DNA of 64,000 bases, from positions 24,404-88,403 of the forward strand of contig JAUSHZ010000007.1 in assembly GCA_030648255.1 (NCBI GenBank), given 5' to 3'. Source of the stretch: a bacterium. GTDB lineage: Bacteria; Patescibacteriota; Minisyncoccia; Minisyncoccales; CG1-02-41-26. The position numbers and the translations under genes are program-made. Numbering within the stretch: the first letter of the stretch is position 1; each line of letters opens with the position of its first letter. This document shows, piece by piece, positions 2,527 to 49,784 of this stretch. The notes beneath the pieces were generated by a model. It was not told the origin of the DNA. It made no database searches and saw only the letters and a list, made by a program, of their open reading frames with translations.

Positions 2527-2751
2527 GTTAGAAGCTGTGTGAATTTTCAAATTTAATGATTTGAAAATTCATTACAGATTCTTACACCCCGTTAAGTGCG
2601 AGCGATTAGCAAGCTACTTAACTGGGGTTTGTTTATATTTCTATCCACACCCCAGTGAAGTAGAATTTAATTTCATTAAATTCACTTCACGGGGTAAATT
2701 CCGCCAACCGCTCAAACTTCGGCTCATCGCCTCGTTTTCGCGGGGCGTCAT
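2527..2751 (-). repeat. repeat copy rpmJ|rpsM (Y, A, R2)
   Basis: near-identical to 2869-3085. Confidence 0.9.
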
Positions 2752-2868
2752 TTATGCGCCTTGGCGCTGTTTGTGTTTTGGAGTTTTGCAAATAACATAA
2801 ACCCTCCCCTTTCTTCTGGCGATTTTACAATCCTTACATAATTTTTTTACTGATGGTTTAACCTTCAT
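2752..2868 (-). CDS. rpmJ: 50S ribosomal protein L36
   Basis: rc gives [38 protein letters not shown] (38 aa, CxxC..C..H); absent from ORF track (<60 aa). Confidence 0.9.
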
Positions 2869-3085
2869 GTTAGAAGCTGTGTGAATTTTTAAATTTAATG
2901 ATTTGAAAATTCATTACAGATTCTTACACCCCGTTAAGTGCGAGCGATTAGCAAGCTACTTAACTGGGGTTTGTTTGTATTTCTATCCACACCCCAGTGA
3001 AGTAGAATTTGAGTACAAATTCACTTCACGGGGTAAATTCCGCTTGCCAATCGCGCTTCGCCTGCTGGCTCGCACTCTTGGAGCG
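2869..3085 (-). repeat. repeat copy infA|rpmJ (Y, A, R1)
   Basis: as above; tail ..ggagcgtcattta abuts infA TGA. Confidence 0.9.
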
Positions 3086-3304
3086 TCATTTAAGTCTATA
3101 AACTATTCTGCCTCTTTTATCATCAATAGAGGCCATTTCAACCAACACCTTATCGCCCAACAAAATTTTTATGCGATTAATTCTAAGCTTCCCGGCCAAA
3201 TGCGCCAAAACCTCGTTTCCATTTTCCAATTGAATTTTAAATAAAAGACTAGGCAAAGCCTCTACAACTTGGCCTCTTTCTCTTATTGTATTAATTTGTT
3301 TCAT
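3086..3304 (-). CDS. infA: translation initiation factor IF-1
   Basis: 72 aa S1-like fold, MKQINTIRERGQVVEALP... Confidence 0.9.
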   Translation of the reverse strand: MKQINTIRERGQVVEALPSLLFKIQLENGNEVLAHLAGKLRINRIKILLGDKVLVEMASIDDKRGRIVYRLK

Positions 3305-3358: not shown

Positions 3359-4738
3359 CTAGAAAACCATTTCTATCTTTATCTTATCTAGGCTTTTTGG
3401 CGCTCTTTTTATCCAAAAAGGCCAAAATTGCGTGTCCAGTCGTTCAATTTGGGGGTAGCTATTATTCAATAAAATCTCCATATCTTCTTTAGATTTTCCA
3501 GCTAAATCCGCAATTAAGGCTGTTTGGTCAATATCATTATAAAGCTTGGCATCTGTTTTTAAATTAAAAATCAAACTCCCTTTTTCCGTAATGCTGCCTT
3601 TTGGAACTACGCTTGTCGCTAAGCTTTGTTCGTATAATTTCTTTGAAGAAGATAGTTTTGTATCAATAAAGCTTTTGGCCATATCCTGCAAATCTGATCC
3701 CTTAAAAACAATTGTCTTAGCTTTTATTTTTGCATAACAATTAAATTCAGCGAGGTTGGCGCCAACAGCTTGAGAACAAGAGAACTCGGGCTCGCCATAG
3801 TCAACTGATTCTTGGTTAAAAGAAAATCCAGCGGTTGTTTGCTCCTTCAAGCCCGAAACAGCCATTTTTTTTAACTCCCTAATCAAGCTTTCTTGAGCAT
3901 TATCCATATCTCCTTGAGTTACTTGATCAACTTCTTTCTGACCCCCGCCGTCAATTTTTTCTCTTGATTCACCCCAAACATTATAGTATAAAGCTGTTCC
4001 TGTTAATCCTGGAATAGAAAACTTAGCAGGGGCTATATTATATTCCTCTCCCTCCTGATCAGCGACAACCTGAACCTCTGTAATGCTTGGGGTTAATTTT
4101 CCATTAAACAATGTGGCTTGGGGCAAAGAAATCTTATTTTTTGCCCGATAAACCTTTCCATCTTTTGATGATATAAATCTTGTTCCTGCTTTTAAGTTTA
4201 AGGGCATTGGGGGATTAATATTATTGTAAACAAATATAGCGCCCGTTGCCCCAGATTGTTCTGTTTCTTTTCCAGTTGACTTAAATGTTTCCCATTTCTC
4301 TACTTCTTTTTCAATTACATTTCCGGGAATAATCTTTTTTTCAAAATCGATTTGCGCTTGAGAAAAAGAAACTTGAATCTCGTCTTTAATTGTAATTGGC
4401 TCTAATAGCGGTTTCACGCTTATTTCTGCTTTTGCCTGCATCGTTAAATATAAAAAGGCTCCCCCTAAAAGCAAAATGGCTACACCAATAACTATGGGAA
4501 TTTTTAGAGCAAGTCTTGGTAAAGTAAAAGAAACTCGAATTTCTTTTTTTCCCTTGCCACGTCGGAGTTCCGCAGGAACGGAGGCGGGTCTTTCTTTTTT
4601 CACCTCCCCCTTCTTCATCCCCTTTCTTGTAGGTGATTTTTTTTGAGGCTTAGTTGAAGCTAAAACAATTGGAAATTGTTCCTCTGTTTCTTCTGCTTCT
4701 TCCTCATCTGGATTTGTTATATCAATAATTTGCTTCAT
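3359..4738 (-). CDS. hypothetical membrane-anchored protein (acidic/basic N-term, single TM, large extracytoplasmic domain)
   Basis: 459-aa ORF; one hydrophobic helix IPIVIGVAILLLGGAFLYL; no recognisable family. Confidence 0.55.
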   Translation of the reverse strand: MKQIIDITNPDEEEAEETEEQFPIVLASTKPQKKSPTRKGMKKGEVKKERPASVPAELRRGKGKKEIRVSFTLPRLALKIPIVIGVAILLLGGAFLYLTMQAKAEISVKPLLEPITIKDEIQVSFSQAQIDFEKKIIPGNVIEKEVEKWETFKSTGKETEQSGATGAIFVYNNINPPMPLNLKAGTRFISSKDGKVYRAKNKISLPQATLFNGKLTPSITEVQVVADQEGEEYNIAPAKFSIPGLTGTALYYNVWGESREKIDGGGQKEVDQVTQGDMDNAQESLIRELKKMAVSGLKEQTTAGFSFNQESVDYGEPEFSCSQAVGANLAEFNCYAKIKAKTIVFKGSDLQDMAKSFIDTKLSSSKKLYEQSLATSVVPKGSITEKGSLIFNLKTDAKLYNDIDQTALIADLAGKSKEDMEILLNNSYPQIERLDTQFWPFWIKRAPKSLDKIKIEMVF

Positions 4739-4866
4739 GTTAGAAATTCTTAATTGAGTGGCGAATTTATGAGCCGTGAAATTTAGAAGTTTTTAGTCCT
4801 CCGTAAATTCAAACTTCGCCTACTGACTCGTTTTCATTAACGGATTACTTATTCTACCACAAAAAT
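4739..4866 (-). repeat. degenerate repeat copy alaS|hypothetical (leader X + tail R3; central hairpin missing)
   Basis: gttagaaattcttaattgagtggcgaatttatgagccgtgaaatttagaa..gtcctccgtaa..attaacggattacttat. Confidence 0.8.
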
Positions 4867-6615
4867 TTACTGCTGCAAAATCGCTTTAATTCGCCGAACG
4901 CCAGCTGAACTGGCTTCTTCTTTAATAATTTTAAATACGCCCAAAGTTTTGGTATTTTCAACATGAGGACCAGCGCAAATTTCTTTAGAGAACTCTCCTG
5001 CGGAATAAACTTTCACTTTTTCTGGATACTTGTGGCCAAAAACTCCTGTGGCCCCTTCATCAAATGCTTTTTGAGTTTCCATTTCACGGCAAACAACAGG
5101 CAACTCCTTTTTTATTTGCTCGTTAACTAAGTCCTCCACTTTTTTTATTTCTTCTGGGGTTAATTTTCTTTCAAAAGAAAAATCAAACCTTATTCTTTCA
5201 GAAGTAATATTGCTACCTTTTTGCTGAACATCCCCTCCCAAAACTTGCCTTAAAGCAGCCAGCATTAAATGAGTGGCTGTGTGGTATTTTGTGGTTTGTT
5301 CAGAATCATCAGCTAAGCCGGATTTAAACTGCCCAGCACTGGCTGTTCTAGACAACTCTTGATGCTTTTTTAATTCCTCTTGAAAACCTTTTTCGTCAAT
5401 TTCCTTGTCTTTCTCCTTGGCAATCTCTCTTGTTATTTCTAAAGGAAATCCGTAAGTTTGATAAAGATTAAAAACCTCTTCCCCAGAAATAATTGGCATA
5501 TTTATTTTTTCAAATTCTTTTAATCCCCTGTCTAAACAAGTTAAAAATCTTTCTTCTTCTTTTTGTAGTTCATTTAAAATAAACTCCTGATTTTCTTTCA
5601 GTTCTGGGTAAACATTTTCATACATAGCAATAATAACTTTAGCAATCTCGCCCGTAAAAGCGCTCTCAATACCCAACAGCTTGCCGTATCTTATTGCCCG
5701 CCTTATTAATCTCCGCAACACATATCCTCTTTCTGTGTTTGACGGAACAAGCCCATCGGCTAATATAAAAACGCTGGCTTTTATATGGTCTGCAATAATG
5801 CGAAAAGATTTTGTATTTTCCTCATATTGCTTTCCCGAAATTTCTGAAATTCTATTTATTATCGGAGTAAACAGCTCTGTTTCATAAACATTACTTTTTC
5901 CTTGCAAAACCATTGTAGTTCTCTCCAGGCCCATGCCAGTGTCCACATTTTTCTGCGATAATTCTTCAAACTTTCCGTCTGCAGTTTTGTTATACTGCAT
6001 AAAAACATTGTTCCAAATCTCCACCCATTTTTTATCGCTTGGGTCAAATTTTTCAGGAACTTCCCCCTCTCCAACCCAATAAAACATTTCTGTGTCTGGG
6101 CCGCAGGGCCCTGTACTTCCTGCTGGGCCCCACCAATTATCCTCACGGCCCAAATAAGCAATCCGCTCTGGCTTAACCCCCAAACCTTGCCAAAGATTAA
6201 AGGCCCCCTCGTCTTTTGGTATATTATTTTCTGTTTCACCTTCAAAAACCGTAAAAGCTAACTTTTCCAAAGGAATATTTAATTCTTTAGTTAAAAATTC
6301 AAAGCTCCATTCAATGGCCTCTTTTTTAAAATAATCCCCCAAACTCCAATTACCAAGCATTTCAAAAAATGTTCCATGGGTGTTGTCCCCCACATCATCA
6401 ATATCACCCGTTCTAATACATTTTTGGCTATTGCAAAGCCGTTTACCTAGGGGATGGTTTTCCCCAAGCAAATAAGGCACCAATGGGTGCATACCTGCTG
6501 TGGTAAATAAAACTGTTGGGTCGTTTTCTGGAATTAAAGGGGCAGATGGTATTCTTTTGTGTCCCTTGTTCTCAAAAAACTTTAAATATTTTTCTCGTAT
6601 TTCTTTAGCTGTCAT
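4867..6615 (-). CDS. alaS: alanine--tRNA ligase, short form (catalytic plus editing-like region, no C-terminal domain)
   Basis: MTAKEIREKYLKFFENKGHKRIPSAPLIPENDPTVLFTTAGMHPL...; HTATHLM motif. Confidence 0.85.
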   Translation of the reverse strand: MTAKEIREKYLKFFENKGHKRIPSAPLIPENDPTVLFTTAGMHPLVPYLLGENHPLGKRLCNSQKCIRTGDIDDVGDNTHGTFFEMLGNWSLGDYFKKEAIEWSFEFLTKELNIPLEKLAFTVFEGETENNIPKDEGAFNLWQGLGVKPERIAYLGREDNWWGPAGSTGPCGPDTEMFYWVGEGEVPEKFDPSDKKWVEIWNNVFMQYNKTADGKFEELSQKNVDTGMGLERTTMVLQGKSNVYETELFTPIINRISEISGKQYEENTKSFRIIADHIKASVFILADGLVPSNTERGYVLRRLIRRAIRYGKLLGIESAFTGEIAKVIIAMYENVYPELKENQEFILNELQKEEERFLTCLDRGLKEFEKINMPIISGEEVFNLYQTYGFPLEITREIAKEKDKEIDEKGFQEELKKHQELSRTASAGQFKSGLADDSEQTTKYHTATHLMLAALRQVLGGDVQQKGSNITSERIRFDFSFERKLTPEEIKKVEDLVNEQIKKELPVVCREMETQKAFDEGATGVFGHKYPEKVKVYSAGEFSKEICAGPHVENTKTLGVFKIIKEEASSAGVRRIKAILQQ

Positions 6616-10937: not shown

Positions 10938-12221
10938 CTACAAGTTTTCGTAGTCCCTCATTTCCATTTGGGCTTTTACTTGCCTCCAAATATCCAAAAC
11001 CACAGAAACCACAATCAATATGGCAGTTCCTCCAATTAAAAATTGAAAAGCCACCACCCCTGTTATCCCCTGAATAATTGAAGGCATTACCGCAATTAAG
11101 CTTAAAGATAAAGCGCCAATAAAAAGTGTGCGGTATAAAATCTTTTGCAAAAACTTGGCAGTTGATTCCCCCGGCCTAATGCCTGGCACAAAGCCACCCA
11201 TTTTTTGCAAGTTAGTGGCAATTGATTTTGGGTCAAAGGTAACGGCTGTGTAGAAAAAAGTAAACAGAAAAACCAAAACAAAAAATAGAGATCCGTTCAC
11301 CCAAACATTTGATAAAAATAATGAAACTGCCTTGGCGGTATTGGCAATAAAAGCGTTTCCTCCAACAGTTAAAAAATTAGCAATCATTGTAGGGAAAAGT
11401 AAAATGCTTAAAGCAAAAATAATAGGAATCACGCCAGCCGGGTTTAAATTAATTGGCAAATAAGTGGACACACCTCCATACATTTTATTGCCCCGCACTC
11501 TCTTGGCATAGTTAACTGGAATATTTCTTTTCGCTTCAGTTATTAAGACAACTCCAGCAATAATTACCAAAGCAATGATAAAAAATGCAATATATGGAAG
11601 CGCTTTTGAAGAGTCCCAACTTAAAGCAATTTGTCTGATTTGCGAAGGCGTATCAGCCACAATGCCAGCAAATATCAAAATTGAAACACCATTACCAACA
11701 CCCTTTTCAGTAATAAGTTCGCCAAGCCACATTAAAAATAACGCCCCCCCAGTAATTGTGATAATAGAGGTAATCATTTGCCACGCTGGCAAAACAGCAA
11801 TGGCTCCCTGTTTCTGAAATAGCATTAACATTGCGTAGGCCTGTAATACTGCTAAAGGCACTGTTAAAATTCTGCCATATTTATTAAACCTGGCTCTGCC
11901 TGCTTCTCCTTCTTCTTTATACATTTTTTCCAAAGCTGGAAAAATCATTGTTAAAAGCTGAATAATAATGGTTGAAGTGATATACGGGCCCAAGCCAAGC
12001 ATAACAATTGATAAATTAGAAAAAGCCCCCCCGACGAAAACATTTAAAAGCCCCAAAAGCTCGTTTTGGCTAAAAAATCTTTTTAAATTTTCTAAGTCAA
12101 TCCCTGGAATGGGAATGTTAGCGGCCAATCGTGAAACAGCCAACAAAGCCAAAACAAATAGAATTTTATTTCTTAATTGTTTGTCTTTAAATATTAATAA
12201 TAGTTTTTGAAACCACTCCAT
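10938..12221 (-). CDS. secY: preprotein translocase subunit SecY
   Basis: 427 aa, 10 TM, operon position. Confidence 0.93.
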   Translation of the reverse strand: MEWFQKLLLIFKDKQLRNKILFVLALLAVSRLAANIPIPGIDLENLKRFFSQNELLGLLNVFVGGAFSNLSIVMLGLGPYITSTIIIQLLTMIFPALEKMYKEEGEAGRARFNKYGRILTVPLAVLQAYAMLMLFQKQGAIAVLPAWQMITSIITITGGALFLMWLGELITEKGVGNGVSILIFAGIVADTPSQIRQIALSWDSSKALPYIAFFIIALVIIAGVVLITEAKRNIPVNYAKRVRGNKMYGGVSTYLPINLNPAGVIPIIFALSILLFPTMIANFLTVGGNAFIANTAKAVSLFLSNVWVNGSLFFVLVFLFTFFYTAVTFDPKSIATNLQKMGGFVPGIRPGESTAKFLQKILYRTLFIGALSLSLIAVMPSIIQGITGVVAFQFLIGGTAILIVVSVVLDIWRQVKAQMEMRDYENL

Positions 12222-12409
12222 GTTAGTAATTCTTAATTGAACGGCGAATTTATGAGCTGTGAAATTTAGAATTTCTTACACCCCGTGGAGTAGAAATTTG
12301 CTCTGCAAATTTCTATTTTAAATTTTTTACTAAAAATTTAAAATTACTCCACAGGGTAAATTCCGCTTGCCAATCGCGCTTCGATTACTCAGCACTCTTG
12401 GAGCGTCAT
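12222..12409 (-). repeat. repeat copy secY|rplO (X, B, R1)
   Basis: direct sequence match to family. Confidence 0.9.
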
Positions 12410-12841
12410 TTACTTTACTGTTCCTCCTGCTTTTTCTATTTTAACTTGAGCAGCTTTTGAAACCAAGCAATCCTCAATAGTAAGTGATTTAGTAAGTTCG
12501 CCATTTCCTAAAATTTTTACCAATGGAACTTTGCCTATAATTTTTCTAATTAATTTTTTATCAACTAAAACTTCCGGGGTAATTTTGTCTCCTTTTTCAA
12601 AATTCTTTTCTAAAACATTAAGATTTATAGAGGCTGTTTCTTCTCCTCTTAATTCCTGCCTGTATCCTCTTATTTTTGGATATCTTTTAATAATCTCTCT
12701 CATAAAGGGTTGCATTTTTCTCCCAGCCCTTGATTTTTGGCCTTTGCAACCCTTCCCACAGTAAGTTCCCTTCTTGCCTCCTCTGCCAATTCTTTTTCTA
12801 TCTTTTGTCTTATTATTTGGTTGTATTTCGTGAATTTGCAT
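12410..12841 (-). CDS. rplO: 50S ribosomal protein L15
   Basis: 143 aa, Gly/Arg-rich N-term. Confidence 0.9.
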   Translation of the reverse strand: MQIHEIQPNNKTKDRKRIGRGGKKGTYCGKGCKGQKSRAGRKMQPFMREIIKRYPKIRGYRQELRGEETASINLNVLEKNFEKGDKITPEVLVDKKLIRKIIGKVPLVKILGNGELTKSLTIEDCLVSKAAQVKIEKAGGTVK

Positions 12842-13040
12842 GTTAGTAATTCTTAATTGAACTGCGAACGATTAGTGAGCTGTGAAATTTAGAAGTACTT
12901 ACACCCTGTGGAGTAGAAATTTGCTCTGCAAATTTCTGTTTTAAATTTTTAGTAAAAAATTTAAAACTACTCCACGGGGTAAATTCCGCCTTCCACTCAA
13001 ACTTCGGCTAATCGCCTCGTTTTCGTGGGGCGTCATTTAA
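12842..13040 (-). repeat. repeat copy rplO|rpsE (X, B, R2); tail 13008-13040 is translated as rpsE C-terminus
   Basis: ..cggctaatcgcctcgttttcgtggggcgtcattta in frame with S5. Confidence 0.88.
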
Positions 13041-13526
13041 CTGTTGTAAGGCCGCTACTGTTGCCCGGGCGATATTTAATTTATTTCTTGATCTTGACAA
13101 TAACTTTGATGATATATTCCTAATTCCAGCTAAACTGCAAATAACTCTTACCTGGCCGCCAGCCACCAACCCCCTACCTTTTGCCTGAGGCCTTAACAAA
13201 ACCCTTGCTGGGCCATACTTTGCTGTAACCTCATGGGGAATTGTTTCCTCAAACATTGGAACAGAAATTAAATTCTTCTTGGCCAACCGAGTTGATTTTT
13301 CAACAGCAATTGCCACATCAGGCCCCTTGGCCACACCTAATCCAATTTTTCCCTTTTTATTGCCAACCACCACAACTGCCCTAAACCTCATTTGCTTTCC
13401 TCCCTTTGTTACTCTTGTAACTCTGGCTAAATCTAAAACCACCGAGTCGAACTCATCTTTCGGTTTTGCTGGAAATTGACCTCTTCTTTCTCTATTAAAT
13501 TTTCCTTGTTGTTGCTGTTGTTCCAT
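13008..13526 (-). CDS. rpsE: 30S ribosomal protein S5 (last ~11 aa encoded by repeat-derived sequence)
   Basis: S5 dsRBD plus C-domain; tail ..[10 protein letters not shown] read through the cgtcattta motif. Confidence 0.9.
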   Translation of the reverse strand: MEQQQQQGKFNRERRGQFPAKPKDEFDSVVLDLARVTRVTKGGKQMRFRAVVVVGNKKGKIGLGVAKGPDVAIAVEKSTRLAKKNLISVPMFEETIPHEVTAKYGPARVLLRPQAKGRGLVAGGQVRVICSLAGIRNISSKLLSRSRNKLNIARATVAALQQLNDAPRKRGD

Positions 13527-13720
13527 GTTAGTAATTCTTAATTGAACGGCGAACGATTAGTGAGCTGTGAAGTTTAGAAGTACTTACACCCTGTGGAGTA
13601 GAAATTTGCTCTGCAAATTTCTGTTTTAAATTTTTTACTAAAAATTTAAAACTACTCCACGGGGTAAATTCCGCTTGCCAATCGTGCCTCACCTGCTGGC
13701 TCGCACTCTTGGAGCGTCAT
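13527..13720 (-). repeat. repeat copy rpsE|rplR (X, B, R1)
   Basis: sequence match. Confidence 0.9.
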
Positions 13721-14065
13721 TTAAAATTGTAGCCCACCTTCTCTCGCTCCTTCAGCCAACGCTTTTATTCTACCATGATATTTAAAGCCTCCTCTATCAA
13801 AAACAACTTTTTTAATCTTTTTTTCTATTGCTAATTTAGCAATTTCCTTACCAACATTAAAAGCCTTTTCTAATTTTTTCAGTTTTTTCTCTTTTGAATC
13901 GTTTGCTGAAATAATAGTTTTGCCTTTTGTGTCGTCAATTATTTGAGCATAGATATGCTGGTTTGATTTAAATACGCAAAGCCGAGGCGCGGTTGGTGTG
14001 CCAATGACTTTTGCCCTGATTCGGCTGTGTCTTCTTGTTCTTTTTTGTTGTTTTGTCTGTTGCAT
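13721..14065 (-). CDS. rplR: 50S ribosomal protein L18
   Basis: 114 aa. Confidence 0.9.
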
Positions 14066-14258
14066 GTTAGTAGTCGTTAATGAATGAGTGGCGATTAGCC
14101 ACGAGTGAATTTACGAATTCTTACACCCTGTGGAGTAGAAATTTGCTCTGCAAATTTCTGTTTCAAATTTTTAGCAAAAAATTTGAAACTACACCACGGG
14201 GTAAGTCCTCCGTAAGCTCTGGCTTCGGCTAATCGCCTTGCCATCGCTAACGGATTAC
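14066..14258 (-). repeat. repeat copy rplR|rplF (W, B, R3)
   Basis: sequence match; gtggc-gatta-gccac. Confidence 0.9.
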
Positions 14259-14819
14259 TTATTTTCCAGCTTTCTTGCCCTCTTTCTTGCGGACAATTTC
14301 ACCAAAATATCTAACGCCCTTGCCTTTGTATGGCTCTGGCTTTCTTAAAGCTCTTATTTTTGCTGCAAACTGGCCAACCTGTTGCTTGTCAAAACCAAAA
14401 ATATTTATAAATTGTTTTTCTATTTTTATAGACAAACCCCCTGGAATCTCCATAAAAATAGGGTGAGAAAAACCCAAGTCCAATCTTATTTTCGATTCTC
14501 CCTCCATAGCAGCCTTGTATCCAACTCCCCTAAGCTCTAATTTCTTTTCAAATCCAACTGAGACGCCATGAACATGGTTCAATAATAAAGCAGTGGTTAA
14601 CCCCCAGAGAGCAGGAATTTCTTTGCTCTCTTTTTCCTGTCTGCCGACAGGCAGGGCTGGCTTTACAACTAAAATATTACCTTGTTGTTCCACAACAATA
14701 CCAACAGGAATTTCCTGTTTTATCTCTCCCTTAGGCCCTTTAAATAAAACATTATCTTTTTCAAGAATAACTGTTACGCCTTGGGGTATTTCTATTGGTT
14801 TTTTTCCTATTCTTGACAT
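14259..14819 (-). CDS. rplF: 50S ribosomal protein L6
   Basis: MSRIGKKPIEIPQGV...; track prefix MKTHTISNM is artefact. Confidence 0.92.
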   Translation of the reverse strand: MSRIGKKPIEIPQGVTVILEKDNVLFKGPKGEIKQEIPVGIVVEQQGNILVVKPALPVGRQEKESKEIPALWGLTTALLLNHVHGVSVGFEKKLELRGVGYKAAMEGESKIRLDLGFSHPIFMEIPGGLSIKIEKQFINIFGFDKQQVGQFAAKIRALRKPEPYKGKGVRYFGEIVRKKEGKKAGK

Positions 14820-15021
14820 GTTAGAAATTGTGTGAGTTTTCAAGCTATAATCTTTTTTATGGCTTGAAAACTCATTACAAGTTCTTACACCCTGTGGAGT
14901 AGAAATTTGCTCCGCAAATTTCTGTTTTAAATTTTTTACTAAAAATTTAAAACTACTCCACGGGGTAAGGTATCCGTAAGCTCGGGCTTCGCCTGCTGGC
15001 TCGCCCTCGCTAACGGCTACC
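14820..15021 (-). repeat. repeat copy rplF|rpsH (Z, B, R3)
   Basis: 13-bp hairpin tgagttttcaagc/gcttgaaaactca. Confidence 0.9.
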
Positions 15022-15411
15022 TTACCACACTTCCACCATTAATTCACCTCCGACTTTATCTTTTCTGGCTTGCTTATCTGTTAATAAACCATTGGTGGTT
15101 GAAACAATAGATAAGCCATAGCCACTTCTTACCTTTGAAATCTCGTCTGCTTTTTTATAAATTCTTTGCCCTGGCTTTGAAATCCTTTTAAACCCAGAGA
15201 CGGCTGGCATCTTTTCATTATATTTTAACTGTATTTTTATAATTTGAAACGGCTTTTTCCCTTTTTTCTTGCAATCCAAAATAAGCCCCTCTGCTTTTAA
15301 AATTTCAGCAATTGAGTATCTTAGTTTTGAAAAAGGAACATCGGTTGTTTTATGGAAAACAACTTGAGCGTTCCTTATTCTATTAAACATGTCTGTTATT
15401 GGATCGGTCAT
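15022..15411 (-). CDS. rpsH: 30S ribosomal protein S8
   Basis: MTDPITDMFNRIRNA... Confidence 0.92.
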   Translation of the reverse strand: MTDPITDMFNRIRNAQVVFHKTTDVPFSKLRYSIAEILKAEGLILDCKKKGKKPFQIIKIQLKYNEKMPAVSGFKRISKPGQRIYKKADEISKVRSGYGLSIVSTTNGLLTDKQARKDKVGGELMVEVW

Positions 15412-15612
15412 ATTAGAAGTTGTGTGAGTTTTCAAGCTATAATTTTTTTTATGGCTTGAAAACTCATTACAAATTCTTATACCCCGTGGAGTAGAAATTT
15501 GCTCTGCAAATTTCTGTTTTAAATTTTTTACTAAAAATTTAAAACTACTCCACAGGGTAAGTCCTCCGTAAGCTCTGGCTCGGCTGTTGCCTCGCCATAG
15601 CTAACGGATTAC
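15412..15612 (-). repeat. repeat copy rpsH|rpsN (Z, B, R3)
   Basis: sequence match. Confidence 0.9.
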
Positions 15613-15798
15613 TTACCAAGACGACTTCTTAATCCCGGGTATTTCTCCTTTACTTGCCATTTCCCTAAAACAAATTCTGCACAAACCAAAGTCCCTTATA
15701 AATCCCCTGTACCTTCCGCACTTAAAACATCGCCTCACTATTCTTGAAGAAAACTTTGGTTTTCGGTTTGATTGATTAATTAATGATTTTTTTGCCAT
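15613..15798 (-). CDS. rpsN: 30S ribosomal protein S14 type Z (zinc)
   Basis: 61 aa, CxxC..CxxC. Confidence 0.9.
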
Positions 15799-16020
15799 GT
15801 TAGTGATTCTTAATTGAACGGCGAGCGATTAGCGAGCTGTGAAATTTAGAATGACTTACACCCCGTTAAGTGCGAGCGATTAGCGAGCTACTTAACTGGG
15901 GTTTCGTTGTATTCTTACCCCACCCCAGTGAAGTAGAATTTGAGTACAAATTCACTTCACGGGGTAAGGCTCTGCTACCGCTCAACCTTCGCCTTCGGCT
16001 CGGCTTCACGGGCAGAAGCC
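15799..16020 (-). repeat. repeat copy rpsN|rplE (X, A, R2-like); tail 15975-16020 translated as rplE C-terminus
   Basis: taccgctcaaccttcgccttcggctcggcttcacgg ~ R2 consensus. Confidence 0.85.
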
Positions 16021-16577
16021 TTAAATGGAAACCCCAGCAATCTTAATAATGCAGCGCCTTCTTCCTTTGTTTTGGCTGTTGTTGAAATTGTTACTTCTAA
16101 TCCAAAAATGCCTTTCTCTTTTTCAACTTTCAATTCAGGAAATGGAACATACTCTTTAAATCCAACTGTAATATCTCCTTGGCTTGTCATAGATTTCTCT
16201 TCAACGCCCCTAAAGTCTCTAGACCTTGGCAAAACAACCCAAATCAACTTCTCTAAAAAATCATACATTCTTTTCTTTCTTAAGGTGCAGCTGGCTCCAA
16301 CCGCCATACCTTCTCTTAGCTTGAAAGCAGCAATTGATTTTTTTGCTTTATTTAGAGATGGTTTTTGCCCGGTAATAGCGGCTATTGATTGAGCAATATA
16401 TTCTTCCGCTTTTTCTCTCTCACTGGCGCTTTTTCCAATAACCATTTTGCCAAAACCGCAATTAACAACAATCTTCTTTATTTTTGGCACAGCCATAACA
16501 GAACTATACCCGAATTTCTTCGTCATTTCAGGAATAACTATTTTATTGTATTGCTCTTGTAATTTCATATTTTTCAT
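15975..16577 (-). CDS. rplE: 50S ribosomal protein L5 (C-terminal ~14 aa encoded by repeat-derived sequence)
   Basis: start taken at MKNMKLQEQYNKIVIPEM after 22-bp hairpin; tail ASAREAEPKAKVER. Confidence 0.85.
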   Translation of the reverse strand: MKNMKLQEQYNKIVIPEMTKKFGYSSVMAVPKIKKIVVNCGFGKMVIGKSASEREKAEEYIAQSIAAITGQKPSLNKAKKSIAAFKLREGMAVGASCTLRKKRMYDFLEKLIWVVLPRSRDFRGVEEKSMTSQGDITVGFKEYVPFPELKVEKEKGIFGLEVTISTTAKTKEEGAALLRLLGFPFKASAREAEPKAKVER

Positions 16578-27550: not shown

Positions 27551-27814
27551 GTTAGTAATCGTTAATGAATGAGTGGCGATTAGCCACGAGTGAATTTACG
27601 AGGACTTACACCCTGTGAAGTAAGATTTGAGGTCTCTTCCAAAAAGTGTATTCTCTTAAACTTTTAACTATTTTTCTCTCGCATCAATTGTTAATAATCG
27701 TACCCTCAAATCTTAATTTTAAATTTTTTACTAAAAATTTAAAATTACTTCACGGGGTAAATTCCGCCAACCGCTCAAACTTCGGCTCATCGCCTCGTTT
27801 TTGCTGGGCGTCAT
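27551..27814 (-). repeat. repeat copy rpsL|rpsG (W, B-type hairpin carrying ~80-nt insertion, R2)
   Basis: ccctgtgaagtaagatttgagg..[insert]..cctcaaatc..attacttcacgggg. Confidence 0.88.
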
Positions 27815-28231
27815 TTAACTTTTAACTCTTTTTGCTCCGTATTTAGATCTTCCATTTTTTCTGCCAGCCACCCCTGTGGTATCTAAATGTCCTCTAACAA
27901 TATGATATCTCACGCCGGGTAAATCTTTAACCCTTCCCCCTCTCACCAAAACCATTGAGTGCTCTTGTAGGTTGTGGCCTTCCCCGCCAATATAAGCAGA
28001 AACTTCTTTGCCATTTGATAGCTTAACCCTGGCTACTTTTCGTAAAGCCGAGTTTGGTTTTTTTGGAGTAACTGTGAAAACCTTAGTGCAAATTCCTCTC
28101 TTAAATGGAGACGCGTAGTCCTGTGGCCTGTTTTTTAAAACATTAAAACCATAAGTCAAAGCTCTCATCTTGATTGTTTTTTTCACTGGCTTTCTTGGCT
28201 TTTTAATTAATTGATGAATTGTTGGACACAT
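27815..28231 (-). CDS. rpsL: 30S ribosomal protein S12
   Basis: [11 protein letters not shown], 138 aa. Confidence 0.95.
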
Positions 28232-28366: not shown

Positions 28367-29317
28367 TTACTTACACTGCTGGGGTTTCACAGAGGTGCAG
28401 GTCAATGTTCCGTCAAGTGCTGTGCACCAAGTAATTCCTGCTTTGTCTGTATCTCCAATTCCCAAACAGCCAGTCAACGCTCCACTTCCTATCATAACTG
28501 TTGTCGAAGCAGAAGACGACACCTCCAAATTATACGCCGGCGTTGTCGTCCCAATCCCGATATTACCCTTCAATATTGTTTTCGTAATACTAGTATTTCC
28601 TAAAGTTACAGAATTGCTGCCATTGCCTATAGCACTCGCTCCTATTACTATTTCATTGGTATTCCCGTCTGCTCCAGCCATTGCGTTATAACCCTCATAA
28701 ACAGAGTTACTGGAAGTTGTATTGGCGGTAACACCATCGGCAATATAAACACCAGCCTTCGTGCCATTGGCGGTGTTTTGATAACCAGTATTATAGTAGA
28801 GAGCCTGCATACCGTTAGCGGTATTTTGATAACCAGTAGTGTTTGAGAAAAGAGCCTGCATACCGTTAGCGGTATTGTAATCGCCAGCAGTATTAGAATA
28901 AAGGGCATACACGCCATTAGCTGTATTTGTATATCCTGTAGTGTTAGAGTAGAGAGATCTATAACCAACAGCAGTATTATAACCCGCTTCATTTGTACTG
29001 GCTGTTGAACTTGCCATCCCCGCTTGATAGCCAACAAAAGTATTGTATAAGGATACATCATAATGACCTGCCTGGTAGCCAATATTAGTTTTAAAGCCAA
29101 TATTATTAAAATCAATTAGATCAGTAACCGCTATACCAAGAGAGGTTAGATATGTAGTAGTAGTTGTAGCTAATGTGCTAGTACTAAAAACATCTAGAGC
29201 TCCCCCAATAGAAACATTATTACCAATTGTGGTAACAGCTTGGGCGACTATAACTACGCAAAAAACCGTTGTTATGACGCTCACTACTACAGTAAAAATT
29301 TGCTTTTTATTATTCAT
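28367..29317 (-). CDS. membrane-anchored surface protein with GYxNTANG repeats (tail-fibre / YadA-head-like) and Cys-rich C-terminus
   Basis: N-terminal TM; ~8 tandem ~14-aa repeats NTANGxxALYSNTxGY; GNIGIGTTTPAYNLEV resembles tail-fibre neck motif. Confidence 0.55.
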   Translation of the reverse strand: MNNKKQIFTVVVSVITTVFCVVIVAQAVTTIGNNVSIGGALDVFSTSTLATTTTTYLTSLGIAVTDLIDFNNIGFKTNIGYQAGHYDVSLYNTFVGYQAGMASSTASTNEAGYNTAVGYRSLYSNTTGYTNTANGVYALYSNTAGDYNTANGMQALFSNTTGYQNTANGMQALYYNTGYQNTANGTKAGVYIADGVTANTTSSNSVYEGYNAMAGADGNTNEIVIGASAIGNGSNSVTLGNTSITKTILKGNIGIGTTTPAYNLEVSSSASTTVMIGSGALTGCLGIGDTDKAGITWCTALDGTLTCTSVKPQQCK

Positions 29318-33462: not shown

Positions 33463-34305
33463 TTATGAAAAATCTGTTAAAAACTTGATTTGGTTTGCTT
33501 GTTGCACATTAAAGTTTATTTTATTTTTGATAAATTCCAAACGATATTCTGGAGAAATTTCCCCGCCATTTGCCAACCTATCTAAAATCATTTGATAATA
33601 TTTAGGATGTATTTCACAAGAAACAAAATCTCTCTTAAGTTCTTTACATTTTAGTAGCTCTGAACCACTCCCACCAAACAACACAAAAATATTGTCGCCT
33701 TCTTTGGTGCTTGATTTTATCAACATTTCAACTAAGCTCAAAGGTATTTGGCAAGAATGAAAAGTTTTATCTTTAGAAACATTTTTAACTAAATCAAAAT
33801 AAAACCAAGAGTATGGCATCCTTCCAGCACTTCCATTTTTAATTCTTCCCTGTATTCTTTTATCGGTTGGATTTTGATAGGGTAAAGCAACTTGATCTTT
33901 ATAAAAATTATTATTTTTTGTTTTTGTAGCGTGTAAAATAACTCTATGGGCAGTGGTAAATTTTTTATCGCTATGGCCAATATTTGAGTTATAAACCCAA
34001 ACATAGTCATTTACTAAAAAGGCATTGTCGTCTAGAAATTTTACTCTTAAATAGGCATTTTGTTTTGGGTAATTCATCATAAATAAATTCCCTGTCGGTT
34101 TTAAAACCCTCATACATTCTTTCGTAAGCTCAATATACCAATCAATATACTCATTCCATTTAGCGGTAAATTTTTTACCAGCATAATTTATGCCCACATT
34201 ATAATCTGGGTCACCATATACCATATCAACCGAATTATCTGGCATTTTCTTTAGAGTAACTAGAATATCGTCATTAAAAATTTTGTTTATAAAATTTTCT
34301 ATCAT
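33463..34305 (-). CDS. DNA methyltransferase, beta-class N6A/N4C
   Basis: DPDY (motif IV-like) near N-term, FVLFGGSGSE (motif I) near C-term. Confidence 0.75.
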   Translation of the reverse strand: MIENFINKIFNDDILVTLKKMPDNSVDMVYGDPDYNVGINYAGKKFTAKWNEYIDWYIELTKECMRVLKPTGNLFMMNYPKQNAYLRVKFLDDNAFLVNDYVWVYNSNIGHSDKKFTTAHRVILHATKTKNNNFYKDQVALPYQNPTDKRIQGRIKNGSAGRMPYSWFYFDLVKNVSKDKTFHSCQIPLSLVEMLIKSSTKEGDNIFVLFGGSGSELLKCKELKRDFVSCEIHPKYYQMILDRLANGGEISPEYRLEFIKNKINFNVQQANQIKFLTDFS

Positions 34306-35141
34306 TTTTTGTTTTGATTTATTAAGTTATACCTAACTGACTTTAAAAATTTAATTGAAGTTATGTCTTGGGGATTAGTAAAAGTATAAGCATACAAATT
34401 AAGTGCATCAAACCCCTTTTGCCTTTCCCTGACCACATAGATACAAACAATTTCTTTTATTTTTGTTTTTAATTCTGGTTTTTGTTTTGCCTGCCAATAA
34501 TAAAGAAAGGGGTGGTAAATTTGGTATATCGAAAAATTCGTTGGCTTACCATTTTTTGCTTCAAAAATCCCTATTTTGCCCATAAATTCAATCGTTAAAT
34601 CAATCTCAATCTGAACTTTATTTAGTTTTATCCCTACATTTTTACCAAAACCATACCCTAAATTAGCTTTTGTTCTATGGGGAAAATATGTTTTTGGTCT
34701 ACTGGCAATGTCCGAATTATCAAACTCTTTGTCTTGACCAAATAAAAAGTGATGCAAAATTCGCTGATTGTTTGCAACCGACAAAATATTCGATTCGCTG
34801 GTGTTGTATTGGTTTAAAATTGATTTTTTATATTGCCAATCAATTATCTTTTGTATTGGCTCAAAATTATGATAAATTTTTTCTATATCTTTAATAAACT
34901 GGTGCTTTCCACTTCCTAAATGAATAAGAGCAAAATCTTCTTTTTGCAAAGCAACAGGCAGTCTTTCTTTGGTATCTAGTTTTGTAGCGTCGAAATGATT
35001 TTGAAATCCTACTTTTTTAGAAACCGCTTTAACTAAGTCATTGTCAAAAACAAAATCGTTTTTATCTTTACAAATTTTAAAAATCATCGACAAAACCTTT
35101 TTCTTTTTATTTTCTTTTTGTGAAGCTTTTTTGGTACTCAT
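34302..35141 (-). CDS. putative type II restriction endonuclease (PD-(D/E)xK-like)
   Basis: 4-nt overlap with the methyltransferase gene; EIDLT..IFEAK could be a D..ExK core. Confidence 0.45.
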   Translation of the reverse strand: MSTKKASQKENKKKKVLSMIFKICKDKNDFVFDNDLVKAVSKKVGFQNHFDATKLDTKERLPVALQKEDFALIHLGSGKHQFIKDIEKIYHNFEPIQKIIDWQYKKSILNQYNTSESNILSVANNQRILHHFLFGQDKEFDNSDIASRPKTYFPHRTKANLGYGFGKNVGIKLNKVQIEIDLTIEFMGKIGIFEAKNGKPTNFSIYQIYHPFLYYWQAKQKPELKTKIKEIVCIYVVRERQKGFDALNLYAYTFTNPQDITSIKFLKSVRYNLINQNKK

Positions 35142-35165
35142 AATTTTATTTTTACTATATCAAAA

Positions 35166-35786
35166 TTAAATACTTTTGTCTTTCACTACATCTGTGAAAT
35201 TTCTCAAAACACTGATGACTTTGCCTTGGATTATTACGGTTTTAACATATAGGGGTTTTAAGGCGGGGTTGGCGGGTTGGAGGCGGATGCGGGTTTTTTC
35301 TTTAAATATCTTTTTTAAAGTAACTTCGTTGCCGTTTATCAACGCCACAGCTGTTTCCCCATTTTCTACGGTGTTTTGTTTGCGGATTATCACAGTATCC
35401 CCATCAAAAATACCTTCGTCAATCATACTGTTGCCTTTTACCCCCAAAGCAAAATGTTCGCCCGAGACAGCCACCATATTTTGAGGCACGGTTATAGTTT
35501 CGTGTTCTTCAATAGCTTCAATTGGCTCACCTGCGGCAATGTATCCCTTAAATGGAATGCTAACACTTGACTCCTGCTTGCCAACTTTTACAGCTCTAGC
35601 GATATTTTTTTCTCGCGTAATATAACCCTTTCCTTGCAAGACCTGCATATAGTGGTTCACTGTTGAAACAGACGCCAACTTAAAATGTTTTCTTATTTCC
35701 TCGTGCGATGGGCTATACCCATTTTTTTCAAAACAATTTTGAATATAATCCAAAAACTTTTTTTGTTTTTTAGTAAGTGAAAACAT
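35166..35786 (-). CDS. lexA: LexA repressor (S24 peptidase)
   Basis: winged HTH N-term, GNSM...K catalytic dyad; start at MFSLTKKQKKF. Confidence 0.8.
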   Translation of the reverse strand: MFSLTKKQKKFLDYIQNCFEKNGYSPSHEEIRKHFKLASVSTVNHYMQVLQGKGYITREKNIARAVKVGKQESSVSIPFKGYIAAGEPIEAIEEHETITVPQNMVAVSGEHFALGVKGNSMIDEGIFDGDTVIIRKQNTVENGETAVALINGNEVTLKKIFKEKTRIRLQPANPALKPLYVKTVIIQGKVISVLRNFTDVVKDKSI

Positions 35787-35957
35787 ATGAATACTTTTAT
35801 TCACTGTAATAGAACAAAAATAGAAAATCAAGCCAAGTTATCCACAGCAACCAAAAAGACGGCTTTAGCCGTCATTAGACAAAAACACCCCTTAAAAAAT
35901 TTTACAGAAACTTTGAAAATTCTGCTGGCGAAACATTTATTTCCCGCAAAATTTGTC

Positions 35958-40017: not shown

Positions 40018-42663
40018 TTAGCTCATTTTGCTCAAGCGAGCGAAGAGAAAGAAAATTAAAGTGAATATTATGGCCATGGCAAACGGGGCTACACTAGAAA
40101 GCCAGTTGCGTTTGTTTGGCTTAAAGCCACGCAAAAATAATGAATTAGAAACCACCGAAACCGAGCTCAAAGCCATAGCCAGGCCTGCCAATTCGGGTTT
40201 TAAAACAATGCCCAGCCCCACCAAAACTCGAGCCGCAATTGGAATGCCCATTACATTATAAAACAAAGCAAAAAACATATTTTGTTTTATTTTGCTCATT
40301 GTTTCTTTGCTTAACTGTATGGCAGTTAACACATCTCGCAAATCATCTTTGATTATCACAATGCCCCCTGCCTCCATTGCCACGTCTGTGCCACTGCCCA
40401 TAGCAATGCCCAAATCCGCTTGGGCTAAAGCTGGAGCGTCATTTATGCCATCTCCCACCATTGCCACTTTAATACCTGTATCTTGCAATTTTTTAATTTC
40501 ATTGGCTTTATCTTGAGGCAGAACTTCAGCTAAAACATTTTTTATGCCAGCCTGTTTAGCGATAGCTTGGGCTGTTCTTTGATTGTCCCCTGTTATCATA
40601 TAAACGGCTATGCCTCTTTTTTGTAATAAAGAAACTGTTTCTGCTGATGTTTCTTTAATAGTGTCAGCCACCGCCACCAATCCCAAAATTTCCTGGCTTG
40701 AAGCCAAGATCATTACGGTCTTTCCTTCTTCTTCTAAGCGTTTCATCTTTCTTTCGATGCCTTCCACTTTAAAGCCAGCGATATCCATAATTAACTTACG
40801 ATTGCCCAAATAATATTTATTAGCATTGATAACTCCCTCAACACCATGCCCGGGAATTGCTTTAAAATTACTTGCTTCTTTTATAGTAATTGCCTCTTCT
40901 CCTGCGTATTTAACAATGGCTTCAGCTAATGGATGTTCGGATAATTTTTCCAAGCTTGCTGCTATAGCGATAACTTCGTCTTCGTCAATTGAGGTAACTC
41001 CAACAATATCTGTAACCTCTGGCTTGCCTTTAGTTAAAGTGCCTGTTTTATCAAAGACAATCGCCCTTACTTTACAAGCCGCTTCCAATGGCTCCCCTCC
41101 TTTAATTAAAATACCGCTTTCAGCGCCCTTGCCAGTTCCTACCATAATAGCGGTTGGCGTGGCTAATCCCAAAGCACAAGGGCAGGCAATAACAATTACC
41201 GAAGTAAATGCCATTAAAGCAAAACTCAAGCTAGAACCTAATATAAAAAACCAAATTAAAAATGTTAAAACAGATATTCCCAAAACAATAGGCACAAACT
41301 TAGCGGAAATTTTATCAGCCACCGCCTGAATAGGGGCTTTAGAGCCTTGGGCGTCTTCAATTAAGCGGATAATTTGCGCTAACGCAGTTTCTTTGCCAAC
41401 TTTAGTGGCTTTAAATTCAAAACTGCCATTTTTGTTAATAGTGGCGCCAATAACCATATCCCCAATATTTTTTTCTTTGGGAATGCTCTCCCCTGTTAGC
41501 ATTGACTCGTCCACCGATGACTGGCCTTTAACAATAACACCGTCAACTGGAATTTTTTCACCCGGCCGAACCACCACAATATCCCCTGCCATTACTTGGT
41601 CCACTGGAATATCAACTGTTGAACTGCCACGAGTCACTCGAGCTGTTTTTGGCTGCAAGCCAACCAGCTTTTTAATGGCTTGAGAAGTTCTGCCTTTGGC
41701 TTTTGCCTCAAGAAACTTTCCTAAAGAAACAAAAGTAATTAAAAAAGCGGCTGTTTCAAAATAGAGTTCTGGTATTTTGGCGCCAGCCAATCCGATTACA
41801 GAATTATTTACAACAATATAATTAATAAACTGCCACAAGCTATAGAAAAAAGCGGTGCTGGTGCCAATGGCAATCAAACTATCCATATTAAAGGTTTTCA
41901 TTTTCAGCCCGCTCCAAAACCCTTTGTAAAATCCCTTGCCAATAATAAACTGGACAGGCAAAGTTAAAATTAAAGAAATAATGCCAATGTAGGGTAAAAA
42001 AGCAACGCCTCCCGGTAAGAACTTAAAAAAGTCCAAGAACATAAAGTAAAGCATTGGGGCAGACAACACTGCTCCCCAGATAAATTTCCTCCACAATGAT
42101 TTTATATGCTTTTCTTTGTTAGCGCTTTCTTCCTCTGTGTTTGCCTCCTCGTGTACAGATGCTTTATAGCCAGCTTTATTAACAGCAGAAATTAAATTTT
42201 CAACTGAAGAAACCGAGCTATCAAAAATAACCCGGGCTTTTTCCGCGGCAAAGTTAACCGAAGCGGTTTTAACCCCAGGCGTTTTTTTAATTGCTCTTTC
42301 AATAATACCTGCGCACGAAGCGCAATGCATTCCGCCTAAAATTAAGCTAATATGTTCTTCTCCTTTGCTTTTTGTTGAAGAGGAATCTGGCAATGAGTCG
42401 TGATGGGGCATTTGAGGTGGCTGCAGAACAACCCCAGAGCTAATATTTTGGGTTGATTTAACATCCCCAGAAAAAATACTGAACAACTGGCTAATTTTTG
42501 AAGAGTGAATTAAATTTTCAACAATTTTATCAATGTCTTCTCGGCCTTGGGGCACCTCAAACTCGCCTTTTTTATAATGCTTAACCTTACCTTCAAAATT
42601 TGGAATGTCATTTTTAGAAGAAAAGCTACCTTCTGCTTCCACCATTGACTCCACCTTCATTTT
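40018..42663 (-). CDS. copA: copper-translocating P1B-type ATPase
   Basis: [32 protein letters not shown]; start trimmed to MKVESMV after copZ stop. Confidence 0.9.
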
Positions 42664-48956: not shown

Positions 48957-49115
48957 ATTTTTTTATTATATTATAATTATATTAGAGCTGGCAATAATAG
49001 CTTTTAGGAGACCACGAGGGTACCCTCCGCGCATGTGGAGGTCTTAATACTTGTGGTAAATCCTAGGAGACGCCACTCTATAAAAATCATCTCTTTTGAG
49101 GTGTTTTTTATTATT

Positions 49116-49784
49116 TTATTTTTTGTTAAATTCTTTCCAATAATCTTTAAATAATTCTTGTGAAGCAATAATATTACTGTGTAAAATTTCATAAAACTTT
49201 TTTCCAAATGGTCGGTTAGTGTAATAGCGATATAATGCCCCGCAAATCCAGTCGGCAATTTGTATATTAGAATCAGTTGCAGAATCAACAGTATTTACAT
49301 AAACGCTCGCTTTTTTAGATAGTTGCAAGATAATATGCAAACGCAAGTTTTCTTTAAATTCTTTTTGTGAAACTTTTTTCAAACTTCTATGGTCTAAATT
49401 AAGAATAATTTGTGGCTCTGCGTTAGGAAAAATAATATCAAGAGTTTTAGCTATTATCTCAGTATAAAGACGGCCCGACTCAACAGCGCTTTTTCTTCTA
49501 AATTCCAAAGGAATATTTTCTGATTTTAGAAAAGAATAAAAAATACGGATATTTTGTTGAGCTAAATATAATAGTGTTTCAGCGCGCAATTTATCAGTTA
49601 AACGAGCATCGGTGAACTTAACTTCCCTGCGGAATTTAAGTTTTTTGTTAGCAAATTTTGCGTCTTGCCACTTGCGAAACGCTTTGGCAGTGGTTCGTTG
49701 ATTGCCAATAATAAACCCGCCGACTATGAAAAGTTTTTCTTTATCACCTTGAAAATTACCAGATTCATCAATAAAAATATACAT
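49116..49784 (-). CDS. DUF3800 family protein
   Basis: MYIFIDESGNF hallmark. Confidence 0.65.
   Translation of the reverse strand: MYIFIDESGNFQGDKEKLFIVGGFIIGNQRTTAKAFRKWQDAKFANKKLKFRREVKFTDARLTDKLRAETLLYLAQQNIRIFYSFLKSENIPLEFRRKSAVESGRLYTEIIAKTLDIIFPNAEPQIILNLDHRSLKKVSQKEFKENLRLHIILQLSKKASVYVNTVDSATDSNIQIADWICGALYRYYTNRPFGKKFYEILHSNIIASQELFKDYWKEFNKK

Follow-up and report, generated by a model that had tools for sequence, protein, structure and literature searches.

We found that the last nine to ten residues of ribosomal protein S5 in an uncultured, groundwater-type member of the Candidatus Paceibacteria are encoded by the first hairpin of a repeat element. In the 64,000-nucleotide stretch of DNA analysed here (the window), it is very probable that the ribosomal protein operons were colonised by a dispersed cassette, that one copy was joined to rpsE at a TAA lying out of frame, that the S5 tail is encoded by this element, and that the tail is a neutral by-product. 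A preliminary description of the same DNA had proposed that the element donated a new C-terminus to S5, and sequence comparisons support that interpretation: relatives without the element end differently, those that carry it share the frame, and untranslated copies of the element spell the same peptide.

Annotation of open reading frames placed the str, S10, spc and alpha operons on the minus strand of positions 1-28300, in the order S12, S7, EF-G, EF-Tu, S10 ... L18, S5, L15, SecY ... IF1, L36, S13, S11, S4. The rpsE gene (uS5) spans 13008-13526 on the minus strand and consists of 172 codons and a TAG. Its product matched Pfam Ribosomal_S5 over residues 27-90 (E = 2.8e-23) and Ribosomal_S5_C over residues 102-166 (E = 1.6e-21), as well as uS5 structures in the PDB with E-values down to 5.6e-39. 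Both S5 domains, together with the L18-S5-L15-SecY context of the spc operon, identify the protein as uS5. The best S5 database matches were 93-98% identical, and the homologues belong to the Candidatus Paceibacteria/Pacebacteria (Patescibacteria, CPR). The gene on the 3' side of the rpsE element is rplO (L15; 12410-12841, minus strand), as judged from its reading frame and gene order.

Next to the rpsE stop codon, the 3' codons read caa cag tta aat gac gcc cca cga aaa cga ggc gat TAG, giving S5 a 12-residue end that closes in NDAPRKRGD. Alignment with relatives showed that the two glutamines and the first base of the leucine codon are native S5 sequence. The element-encoded part (13011-13039, minus strand) consists of two bases of Leu163 and codons N164-D172. 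The tail is thus element-encoded, as had been claimed, but it amounts to nine full codons, the two bases of Leu163 and the stop instead of about 11 residues. The element's own TAA, which is the in-frame stop in 30 of 50 copies, lies out of frame here (13037-13039, minus strand; tTA Aat). Because this TAA straddles two rpsE codons, the S5 frame runs on to the TAG at 13008-13010 (minus strand), which falls within the apical loop of hairpin module A (GGC-GAUUA-GCC). The same loop variant is also present in the non-coding copy between the L6 and L18 genes. The shifted reading frame noticed at the outset was therefore confirmed, and the stop does lie inside the element, although 29 nt, not 30, past the first base of its TAA. 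The assembled junction, within 13000-13060, reads CAGTTAAATGACG and includes the A/T-rich run CAGTTAAAT; the repeat begins at the rpsE 3' end with TAAATGACGCCCC. By sequence, the tryptic peptide expected from the S5 tail is ATVAALQQLNDAPR.

The element is a cassette of 150-270 nt that runs from stop codon to start codon and is built of three abutting hairpin modules, A, B and C. About 17 spacers of the ribosomal protein region hold it, and it fills most gaps between these genes. A 24-mer from its left end, CTCGTTTTCGTGGGGCGTCATTTA, lies at 13016-13039 on the plus strand and has related strings at 2731-2754 (1 mismatch) and 27794-27817 (3 mismatches); shuffled sequence gave 0 matches. At rpsE, module A (12980-13039, minus strand) has the basal stem UAAAU/AUUUA, three more stems and internal loops GA/GA and GA/GAA, with a predicted energy of -25.4 kcal/mol; its covariance-model match covers 12976-13039 and scores 81.9 bits. 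Module B (12904-12979, minus strand) places a 13-bp stem, CCCCGUGGAGUAG/CUACUCCACAGGG, around two hairpins in a Y shape. Module C (12841-12903, minus strand) is a long imperfect hairpin, GUGUAAG...UUACUAAC, whose last pair takes in the A of the rplO AUG. Ahead of rplO, the end of the cassette holds no Shine-Dalgarno sequence. Module C also contains a likeness to splice signals (GUAAGU...UACUAAC), which we regard as coincidence, as both strings pair as strands of hairpin C.

A covariance model of module A gave 68 matches, of which 17 fall in the window and the others in related loci. These 17 lie on the minus strand between 1277 and 27817, in spacers of the str, S10, spc and alpha operons except for one 3' of alaS. 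All 17, and all copies in the related locus L006, are on the gene strand. The closest paralogue of the rpsE module lies 3' of rpmJ (2691-2754, minus strand) and another lies 3' of rpsL (27754-27817, minus strand). At both sites the element carries the stop of the upstream gene, as first described: rpmJ (L36) ends in frame at the TAA 2752-2754, and rpsL (S12) at the TAA 27815-27817. In the copy 3' of infA (3030-3092, minus strand), the IF1 stop is the TGA of TTAAATGA, at 3086-3088. We also observed a shortened cassette with modules A and C but without B (4739-4866, minus strand), between the gene for alanyl-tRNA synthetase (582 aa; 4867-6615) and one for a GlxA beta-barrel domain protein (3359-4738). 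This is the sole copy in the window that does not lie between translation-factor or ribosomal protein genes. In metagenome contigs the cassette follows genes that we take, by the look of their sequences, to be NusA-, NusB-, S16-, L11-, ThrRS-, Hsp20-, histidine kinase- and pyrophosphatase-like, among others.

The covariance model found no module A copy in the 28-64 kb part of the window, though up to about 52 kb most genes of this part likewise have minus-strand orientation. This part holds other features. Four tandem 51-nt repeats (28739-28939) lie inside an open reading frame without a Pfam match (28367-29317, minus strand). At 33463-35831 (minus strand) a LexA-like repressor (35166-35831), a DUF6996/DUF6997 protein and an N6/N4 DNA methylase stand in a row; in two related metagenome contigs, L028 and L108, what we presume from sequence to be LexA-methyltransferase fusion reading frames lie directly 3' of a copy of the element. 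A DUF3800-V RNA (Rfam RF02964, 41.9 bits) at 48983-49080 on the plus strand adjoins a DUF3800 protein gene (49116-49784, minus strand). The 13-mer ATAAATGACGCTCC at 40433-40445 was considered as an element copy and rejected as a chance match, being the GDGINDAP motif of a 915-aa reading frame. This frame presumably encodes a P-type heavy-metal ATPase and happens to contain the same INDAP peptide.

Searching the whole window against Rfam at gathering thresholds gave no match to the cassette, and a search of 12200-16000 at E<=10 returned only sub-threshold hits (E >= 0.02, far below gathering), mostly to hairpin models of microRNA precursors. The element family was not found described in a search of the full-text literature and appears to be undescribed. 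Among viral contigs, the pattern of the B/C junction gave 11 matches, but none was accompanied by the other modules and they were set aside as chance matches.

The 216-nt spacer between rpsE and rplO had a predicted fold of -70.8 kcal/mol (z = -8.5 against shuffles), and the three-module architecture was predicted in most of the 15 spacers folded. For module B, a long stem enclosing two hairpins and two consecutive hairpins are alternatives. Module A, a 60-nt hairpin, comes in three or more sequence types that share one architecture, and its GA/GA and GA/GAA internal loops are conserved across these types. A kink-turn was considered for these loops and rejected, as they are symmetric 2x2 (GA/GA) or 2x3 (GA/GAA) without a 3-nt bulge. 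Among 15 copies of module A, 93% of the cells were paired and 11 of 20 pairs had changed on both sides, compared with 24-42% paired in slid controls. The basal stem, stop codon included, varies as UAAAU/AUUUA, UAAGU/ACUUA and UAGCG/CGCUUA. Even the rpsE-linked hairpins of three genomes show compensatory changes (CCAC/GUGG, UCGC/GCGA and CCGC/GCGG; AAAC/GUUU against ACGCC/GGUGU). They keep their fold though one strand is translated, which suggests that the constraint acts on the nucleic acid and not on the peptide.

Which strand matters was examined in several ways. The count of G-U against A-C pairs (57 against 27) weakly favours the sense strand, but as a strand test it was rejected as too weak and confounded by the alignment register. 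On the sense strand of the element, promoter-like sites stood at chance level (9 against 8.0 expected) and no terminator-like sites were found. On the antisense strand, module B has the look of an intrinsic terminator, with a T-run behind the hairpin, at 17 sites against 3.8 expected; examples on the plus strand are 12286-12320, 12909-12943, 13594-13628, 14131-14165, 14895-14929 and 15487-15521.

The origin of the S5 tail was addressed by comparison with related loci, labelled L001, L006, L007, L008, L158, L160 and so on, with W for the window; among the S5 clusters, P0002 corresponds to L001 and P0004 to L160. S5 homologues are alike up to ...NKLNIARAT[IV].AL..LK and then diverge fully. Unrelated short tails were found in all but four (P0001, P0003, P0008 and P0106) of the about 120 closest homologue clusters listed; these proteins have hypervariable tails and no conserved canonical uS5 terminus. 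When S5 C-termini were aligned with those of element-free relatives, as the preliminary description had suggested, none of the element-free proteins ended in the tail of the window. The S5 of L001, which has a compact operon without the element and is 98% identical over 95% of S5, ends in QQLKIKQYADKRPKTTT because its rpsE overlaps rplO by 32 nt. The S5 of L160, whose spacer is also element-free, likewise reads into rplO and ends in LKTNANPRNTTATQK, and that of L008 ends in RQLKTKA three bases ahead of the rplO ATG. Element-free relatives other than L001 thus show ends such as LKTKA or LKTNANPR.... Overlaps of 29-41 nt between rpsE and rplO were observed in compact relatives (L001, 3563-3594; L160, 1997-2034; L009-L011), and the recurrent CPR tails 'YAD..KTK' and 'HANSSNKTKK' are the 5' end of rplO read in another frame. 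Judging from these alignments, the tail that was replaced at rpsE is itself unconserved and came from an rplO overlap of about 30 nt.

Tails of the form NDA[PS]R or KDAP occurred solely where the rpsE-rplO spacer holds the element or a relic of it, namely in L006, L158 and L007. The S5 of L006 reads LKV-NDASRKQGEAKV (junction string LKVNDASRKQGEAKV) and stops at a TGA 38 nt into the element. That of L158, with the element present in the spacer, reads LKI-NDAPRTPKHGEV (junction LKINDAPRTPKHGEV), and that of L007 reads LKI-KDAPKTQVVSETK (junction LKIKDAPKTQVVSETK), where a decayed relic no longer folds. These relatives have the S5 frame in common and differ in the position of the stop. Tail donation is not confined to this genome: several Paceibacteria lineages share it or show it repeated. 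The decisive check came from the untranslated copies at rpmJ and rpsL: read in the S5 frame, each gave a 14-residue peptide that is the same as the S5 tail peptide, indicating that the peptide belongs to the element and not to S5. HMMER (phmmer) did align the tail as far as residue 171 with spinach chloroplast uS5 (...QFSDVARDRG), an alignment best read as chance because untranslated copies spell the same peptide.

S5 is not the only protein extended in this way. The left end of the element, TAAATGA, closes two of the three frames (TAA, TGA) within its first seven bases, so that an insertion changes the upstream protein in just one frame of three. We took a census of stops in 50 non-redundant copies with a substantial upstream reading frame. 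The stop was at the element TAA in 30, at position 5 in 5 and just before the TAA in 3, while about 9 genes read into the element; some 18% of the copies thus donate C-terminal residues. A second and longer case in the window is L5. Its gene, rplE (15975 to about 16577), enters a module A copy at 15961-16023 (minus strand) and stops at TAG 15975-15977, which gives a 14-residue tail, ASAREAEPKAKVER; L5 of L001 ends in ...GFPFKK. Among ribosomal proteins the read-in cases are S5 (in the window and L006), L5 (in the window) and, outside the window, S17. The other read-in proteins, likewise from elsewhere, are, as we assume from their sequences, Fpg/MutM-like (...CPRCQK followed by 10 residues), histidine-kinase-like and glycogen-synthase-like. 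Read-in stops always fell within 10-14 codons.

How the cassette reached these sites can be partly read from its ends. For both S5 and L5 in the window, the left end of the cassette is a TAA already present in another frame, a few codons short of the true stop, and the stretch from this TAA to the next ATG is replaced. Both cassette ends carry a TAA (TAA|ATGACG...TTAC|TAA|CATG), the left one being paired in the basal stem; compared with relatives, filled sites lack the native spacer bases. No terminal inverted repeats were found: in a seed search, inverted repeats lay within or beside module B and none joined the two ends. No transposase, Y1, RAYT or TnpB gene was present among the 40 reading frames scanned in the 64-kb window. 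Because native bases are not kept, terminal inverted repeats are lacking and the window holds no transposase gene, we favour a spread by replacement or recombination, probably anchored on TAA...ATG, over cut-and-paste transposition. The element had initially been said to have inserted into, or recombined with, the 3' end of rpsE; the second option agrees with these data, and simple cut-and-paste insertion fits less well, the stretch from the TAA to the rplO ATG having been replaced. In L006, L158 and L007 the TAAAT of the element merges with Val/Ile-Lys codons (AAA GTA AAT or AAA ATA AAT), and the window lacks six bases at the junction compared with them (TTA------AAT). An in-frame deletion between two TAAA repeats would explain this, as would a separate event.

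The spacers also differ between close relatives. The window and L006 differ in cassette occupancy at no fewer than 5 spacers, which points to fast turnover, and L007 has only the non-folding relic. A tree of 3.6 kb of concatenated genes had the form (L008,(L006,(W,L001,L007))), in which the window, L001 and L007 stand at almost equal distances. As the element-free L001 and the relic-bearing L007 are nearest to the window and L006 lies outside, the element must be assumed to have been lost in L001 or gained more than once at this spacer. The 3.6-kb tree does not separate one ancient insertion with loss in L001 from repeated gains. Two further observations concern these spacers. The 16-nt S8-L6 spacers of L007, L008 and L001 hold no element; their sequence (attaagaattactaaa and similar) matches module C at its 3' end, AATTAAGAATTACTAAC. 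They may be remnants of a deletion, or module C may have been built from such an ancestral start context. Another repeat, a GC-rich hairpin (cgccccacccctcggctttcgggccgaggagtggggcg), occupies the L18-S5, L36-S13 and S10-L3 spacers of L007 and the L29-S17 spacer of L008, and colonisation of ribosomal protein spacers by hairpin repeats seems to be common in the clade.

Overlap with, or extension of, gene 3' ends has been documented before for repeats of Coxiella (PMC5896051) and for BOX, BRE and others (PMC3184786). In Coxiella burnetii, copies of the small non-coding repeats QMITE1 and QMITE2 share 1-50 bp with the 3' ends of functional genes and provide C-terminal residues, including a 33-aa extension of EnhC in strain Dugway, and an indel sets whether the stop falls before or inside the element (PMC5896051). 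QMITEs, however, have terminal inverted and direct repeats and are not stop-to-start cassettes, whereas the present element has no terminal inverted repeats, is strictly co-oriented with the genes and abuts the next start codon. It resembles MITEs in being short, non-coding, multi-copy and polymorphic in presence between close genomes, and departs from them in lacking terminal inverted repeats. A second comparison is with MIRUs, which Supply et al. in 1997 reportedly found to be co-oriented with their flanking genes. According to PMC3184786, MIRUs stand between cistrons of polycistronic operons, are co-transcribed and have ends that overlap the adjacent genes. The present element shares the intercistronic, co-oriented placement, but MIRUs are direct repeats of 40-100 bp with small reading frames thought to couple translation, whereas it is built of hairpins. 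A MIRU-like reading frame spanning the element was looked for and rejected: between TAAATG and TAACATG every frame is interrupted, the frames are inconsistent from copy to copy, and the modules vary in length by amounts that are not multiples of 3.

By modular logic only, the element can be likened to BOX (boxA-boxB-boxC) of S. pneumoniae and BIME/REP of E. coli, which have modular, exchangeable variants with stable predicted RNA structures and are intergenic and transcribed (PMC3184786). Those repeats occur in both orientations and are not tied to stop and start codons, in contrast to the single stop-to-start orientation seen here; REPs are moreover linked to RAYT transposases, none of which was among the 40 window frames scanned. 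The element thus has neither the free orientation nor a cognate RAYT expected of a REP or BIME. Rickettsia RPEs (Ogata et al. 2000, cited in PMC5896051 and PMC3184786) are palindromic repeats translated within their host protein, with hairpin-forming sequence serving as codons. RPEs lie in frame inside genes and give internal peptide segments, whereas here the frame takes in just the 5' half of a terminal hairpin, at the C-terminus. The element is best placed among the small, dispersed and structured intergenic repeats. The tail phenomenon is of a known kind, and the cassette family behind the S5 tail, apparently undescribed, is the more interesting object.

Several other explanations of the tail were weighed. 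It could be ancestral, a shortened bacterial or chloroplast uS5 tail, in which case the A3-type module would have arisen from the rpsE 3' end and then been copied elsewhere. Many bacterial uS5 proteins have a basic ...KRGK tail, the chloroplast alignment extends to residue 171, and Pfam S5_C reaches as far as residue 166. On the other hand, only four of the other 118 close Patescibacteria clusters listed have the tail, two close relatives without the element in the spacer read into rplO, and module A is a covarying hairpin family of three or more sequence types found 3' of dozens of unrelated genes. NDAPR is latent in A1 copies that are never translated, and orthologous tails part after NDA[PS]R exactly as the compensatory changes of the hairpin dictate. 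An ancestral tail is thus largely refuted and very improbable. We consider it extremely improbable that a sequencing or assembly frameshift hides a true S5 end at the element TAA, as in other genes: the assembly is of metagenome type and the A/T-rich junction is prone to indels, but the leucine codon TTA stands in the same frame in the element-free L001, L160 and L008, the out-of-frame relation recurs in four independent assemblies, and the 6-nt difference from relatives is in frame. The tail might instead have been co-opted, with the basic PRKRGD selected for rRNA or protein contacts, or with translation into hairpin A regulating rplO through processing or coupling. The persistence of an element-derived tail in several lineages, even after decay of the element in L007, and the apparent avoidance of long extensions, with stops never beyond 14 codons, would agree with such a role, which we nevertheless hold to be improbable: beyond the part fixed by the element the tails are unconserved (NDAPRKRGD against the endings of L006, L158 and L007), close relatives do without one, and CPR S5 tails are generally hypervariable. 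The S5 tail is most likely, from these comparisons, a neutral by-product without a function of its own.

Whether the cassette does anything for its host is a more even matter. To the view that it is purely selfish MITE- or REP-like DNA, with orientation and stop/start adjacency produced only by purifying selection in compact operons, we give somewhat less than an even chance. Presence and absence vary between close genomes, relics exist, and the element lies 3' of many unrelated genes. Native spacers are only 1-20 nt long, so that any insertion adjoins a stop and a start, and with module B terminator-like on the antisense strand (17 sites against 3.8 expected) the reverse orientation would be lethal in operons; under selfish spread, only the observed orientation would be tolerated there. 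Against it stand the lack of terminal inverted repeats and of a clear target duplication, a stop codon that forms part of a covarying basal stem, native spacer bases that were replaced and not retained, and non-canonical GA/GA and GA/GAA loops conserved across sequence types. A functional RNA role for the cassette is possible but rather doubtful. That it represents an undescribed class of intercistronic RNA modules in the Paceibacteria, a self-folding 'stop-hairpins-start' unit and not junk, we regard as unlikely.

The explanation we prefer for the S5 tail runs as follows. The ribosomal protein operons of this Paceibacteria genome have been colonised by a dispersed, modular and highly structured intercistronic repeat. 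At rpsE, the cassette is joined at a TAA lying out of frame in the last S5 codons, leaving S5 in the one open frame. The ribosome would translate the 5' strand of hairpin A and stop at a TAG that happens to fall in its apical loop, and NDAPRKRGD has taken the place of an older, equally unconserved tail from the 30-nt rplO overlap. The hairpin would be kept by constraints on the nucleic acid, not by the peptide, and the cassette probably either works at the level of the sense-strand RNA or can be tolerated in the sense orientation alone. Internal ribosomal protein cistrons of this lineage lack Shine-Dalgarno sequences even in compact relatives, and so probably rely on coupling between termination and reinitiation. 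Because each module folds on itself, stop and start would lie a few helix widths apart. Self-folding modules that keep stop and start physically near would let a downstream cistron without a Shine-Dalgarno sequence be translated by coupling, or after RNA processing. The cassette may thus, on the predicted folds, preserve coupling or mark processing sites.

If the cassette were an RNA module, it might hold stop and restart sites adjacent or provide processing sites that give near-leaderless mRNAs; it might also insulate cistrons and block antisense transcription, and the reading of hairpin A at rpsE and rplE would then serve as an inherent means of modulating the expression of the next gene. 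Structured cassettes of 150-270 nt between most ribosomal protein genes of a reduced genome, in the operons that it expresses most highly, run counter to the compaction of its closest relatives. They leave no Shine-Dalgarno-like context, and the start codon comes to lie buried at a hairpin base, which raises the question of how the internal cistrons are translated. With one insertion frame in three altering the upstream protein, the repeat is in a sense 'pre-adapted' to operons. The S5 and L5 tails described here, like the 'YAD..KTK' S5 tails of the CPR, are by-products of the sequence downstream and should not be read as lineage-specific ribosomal features.
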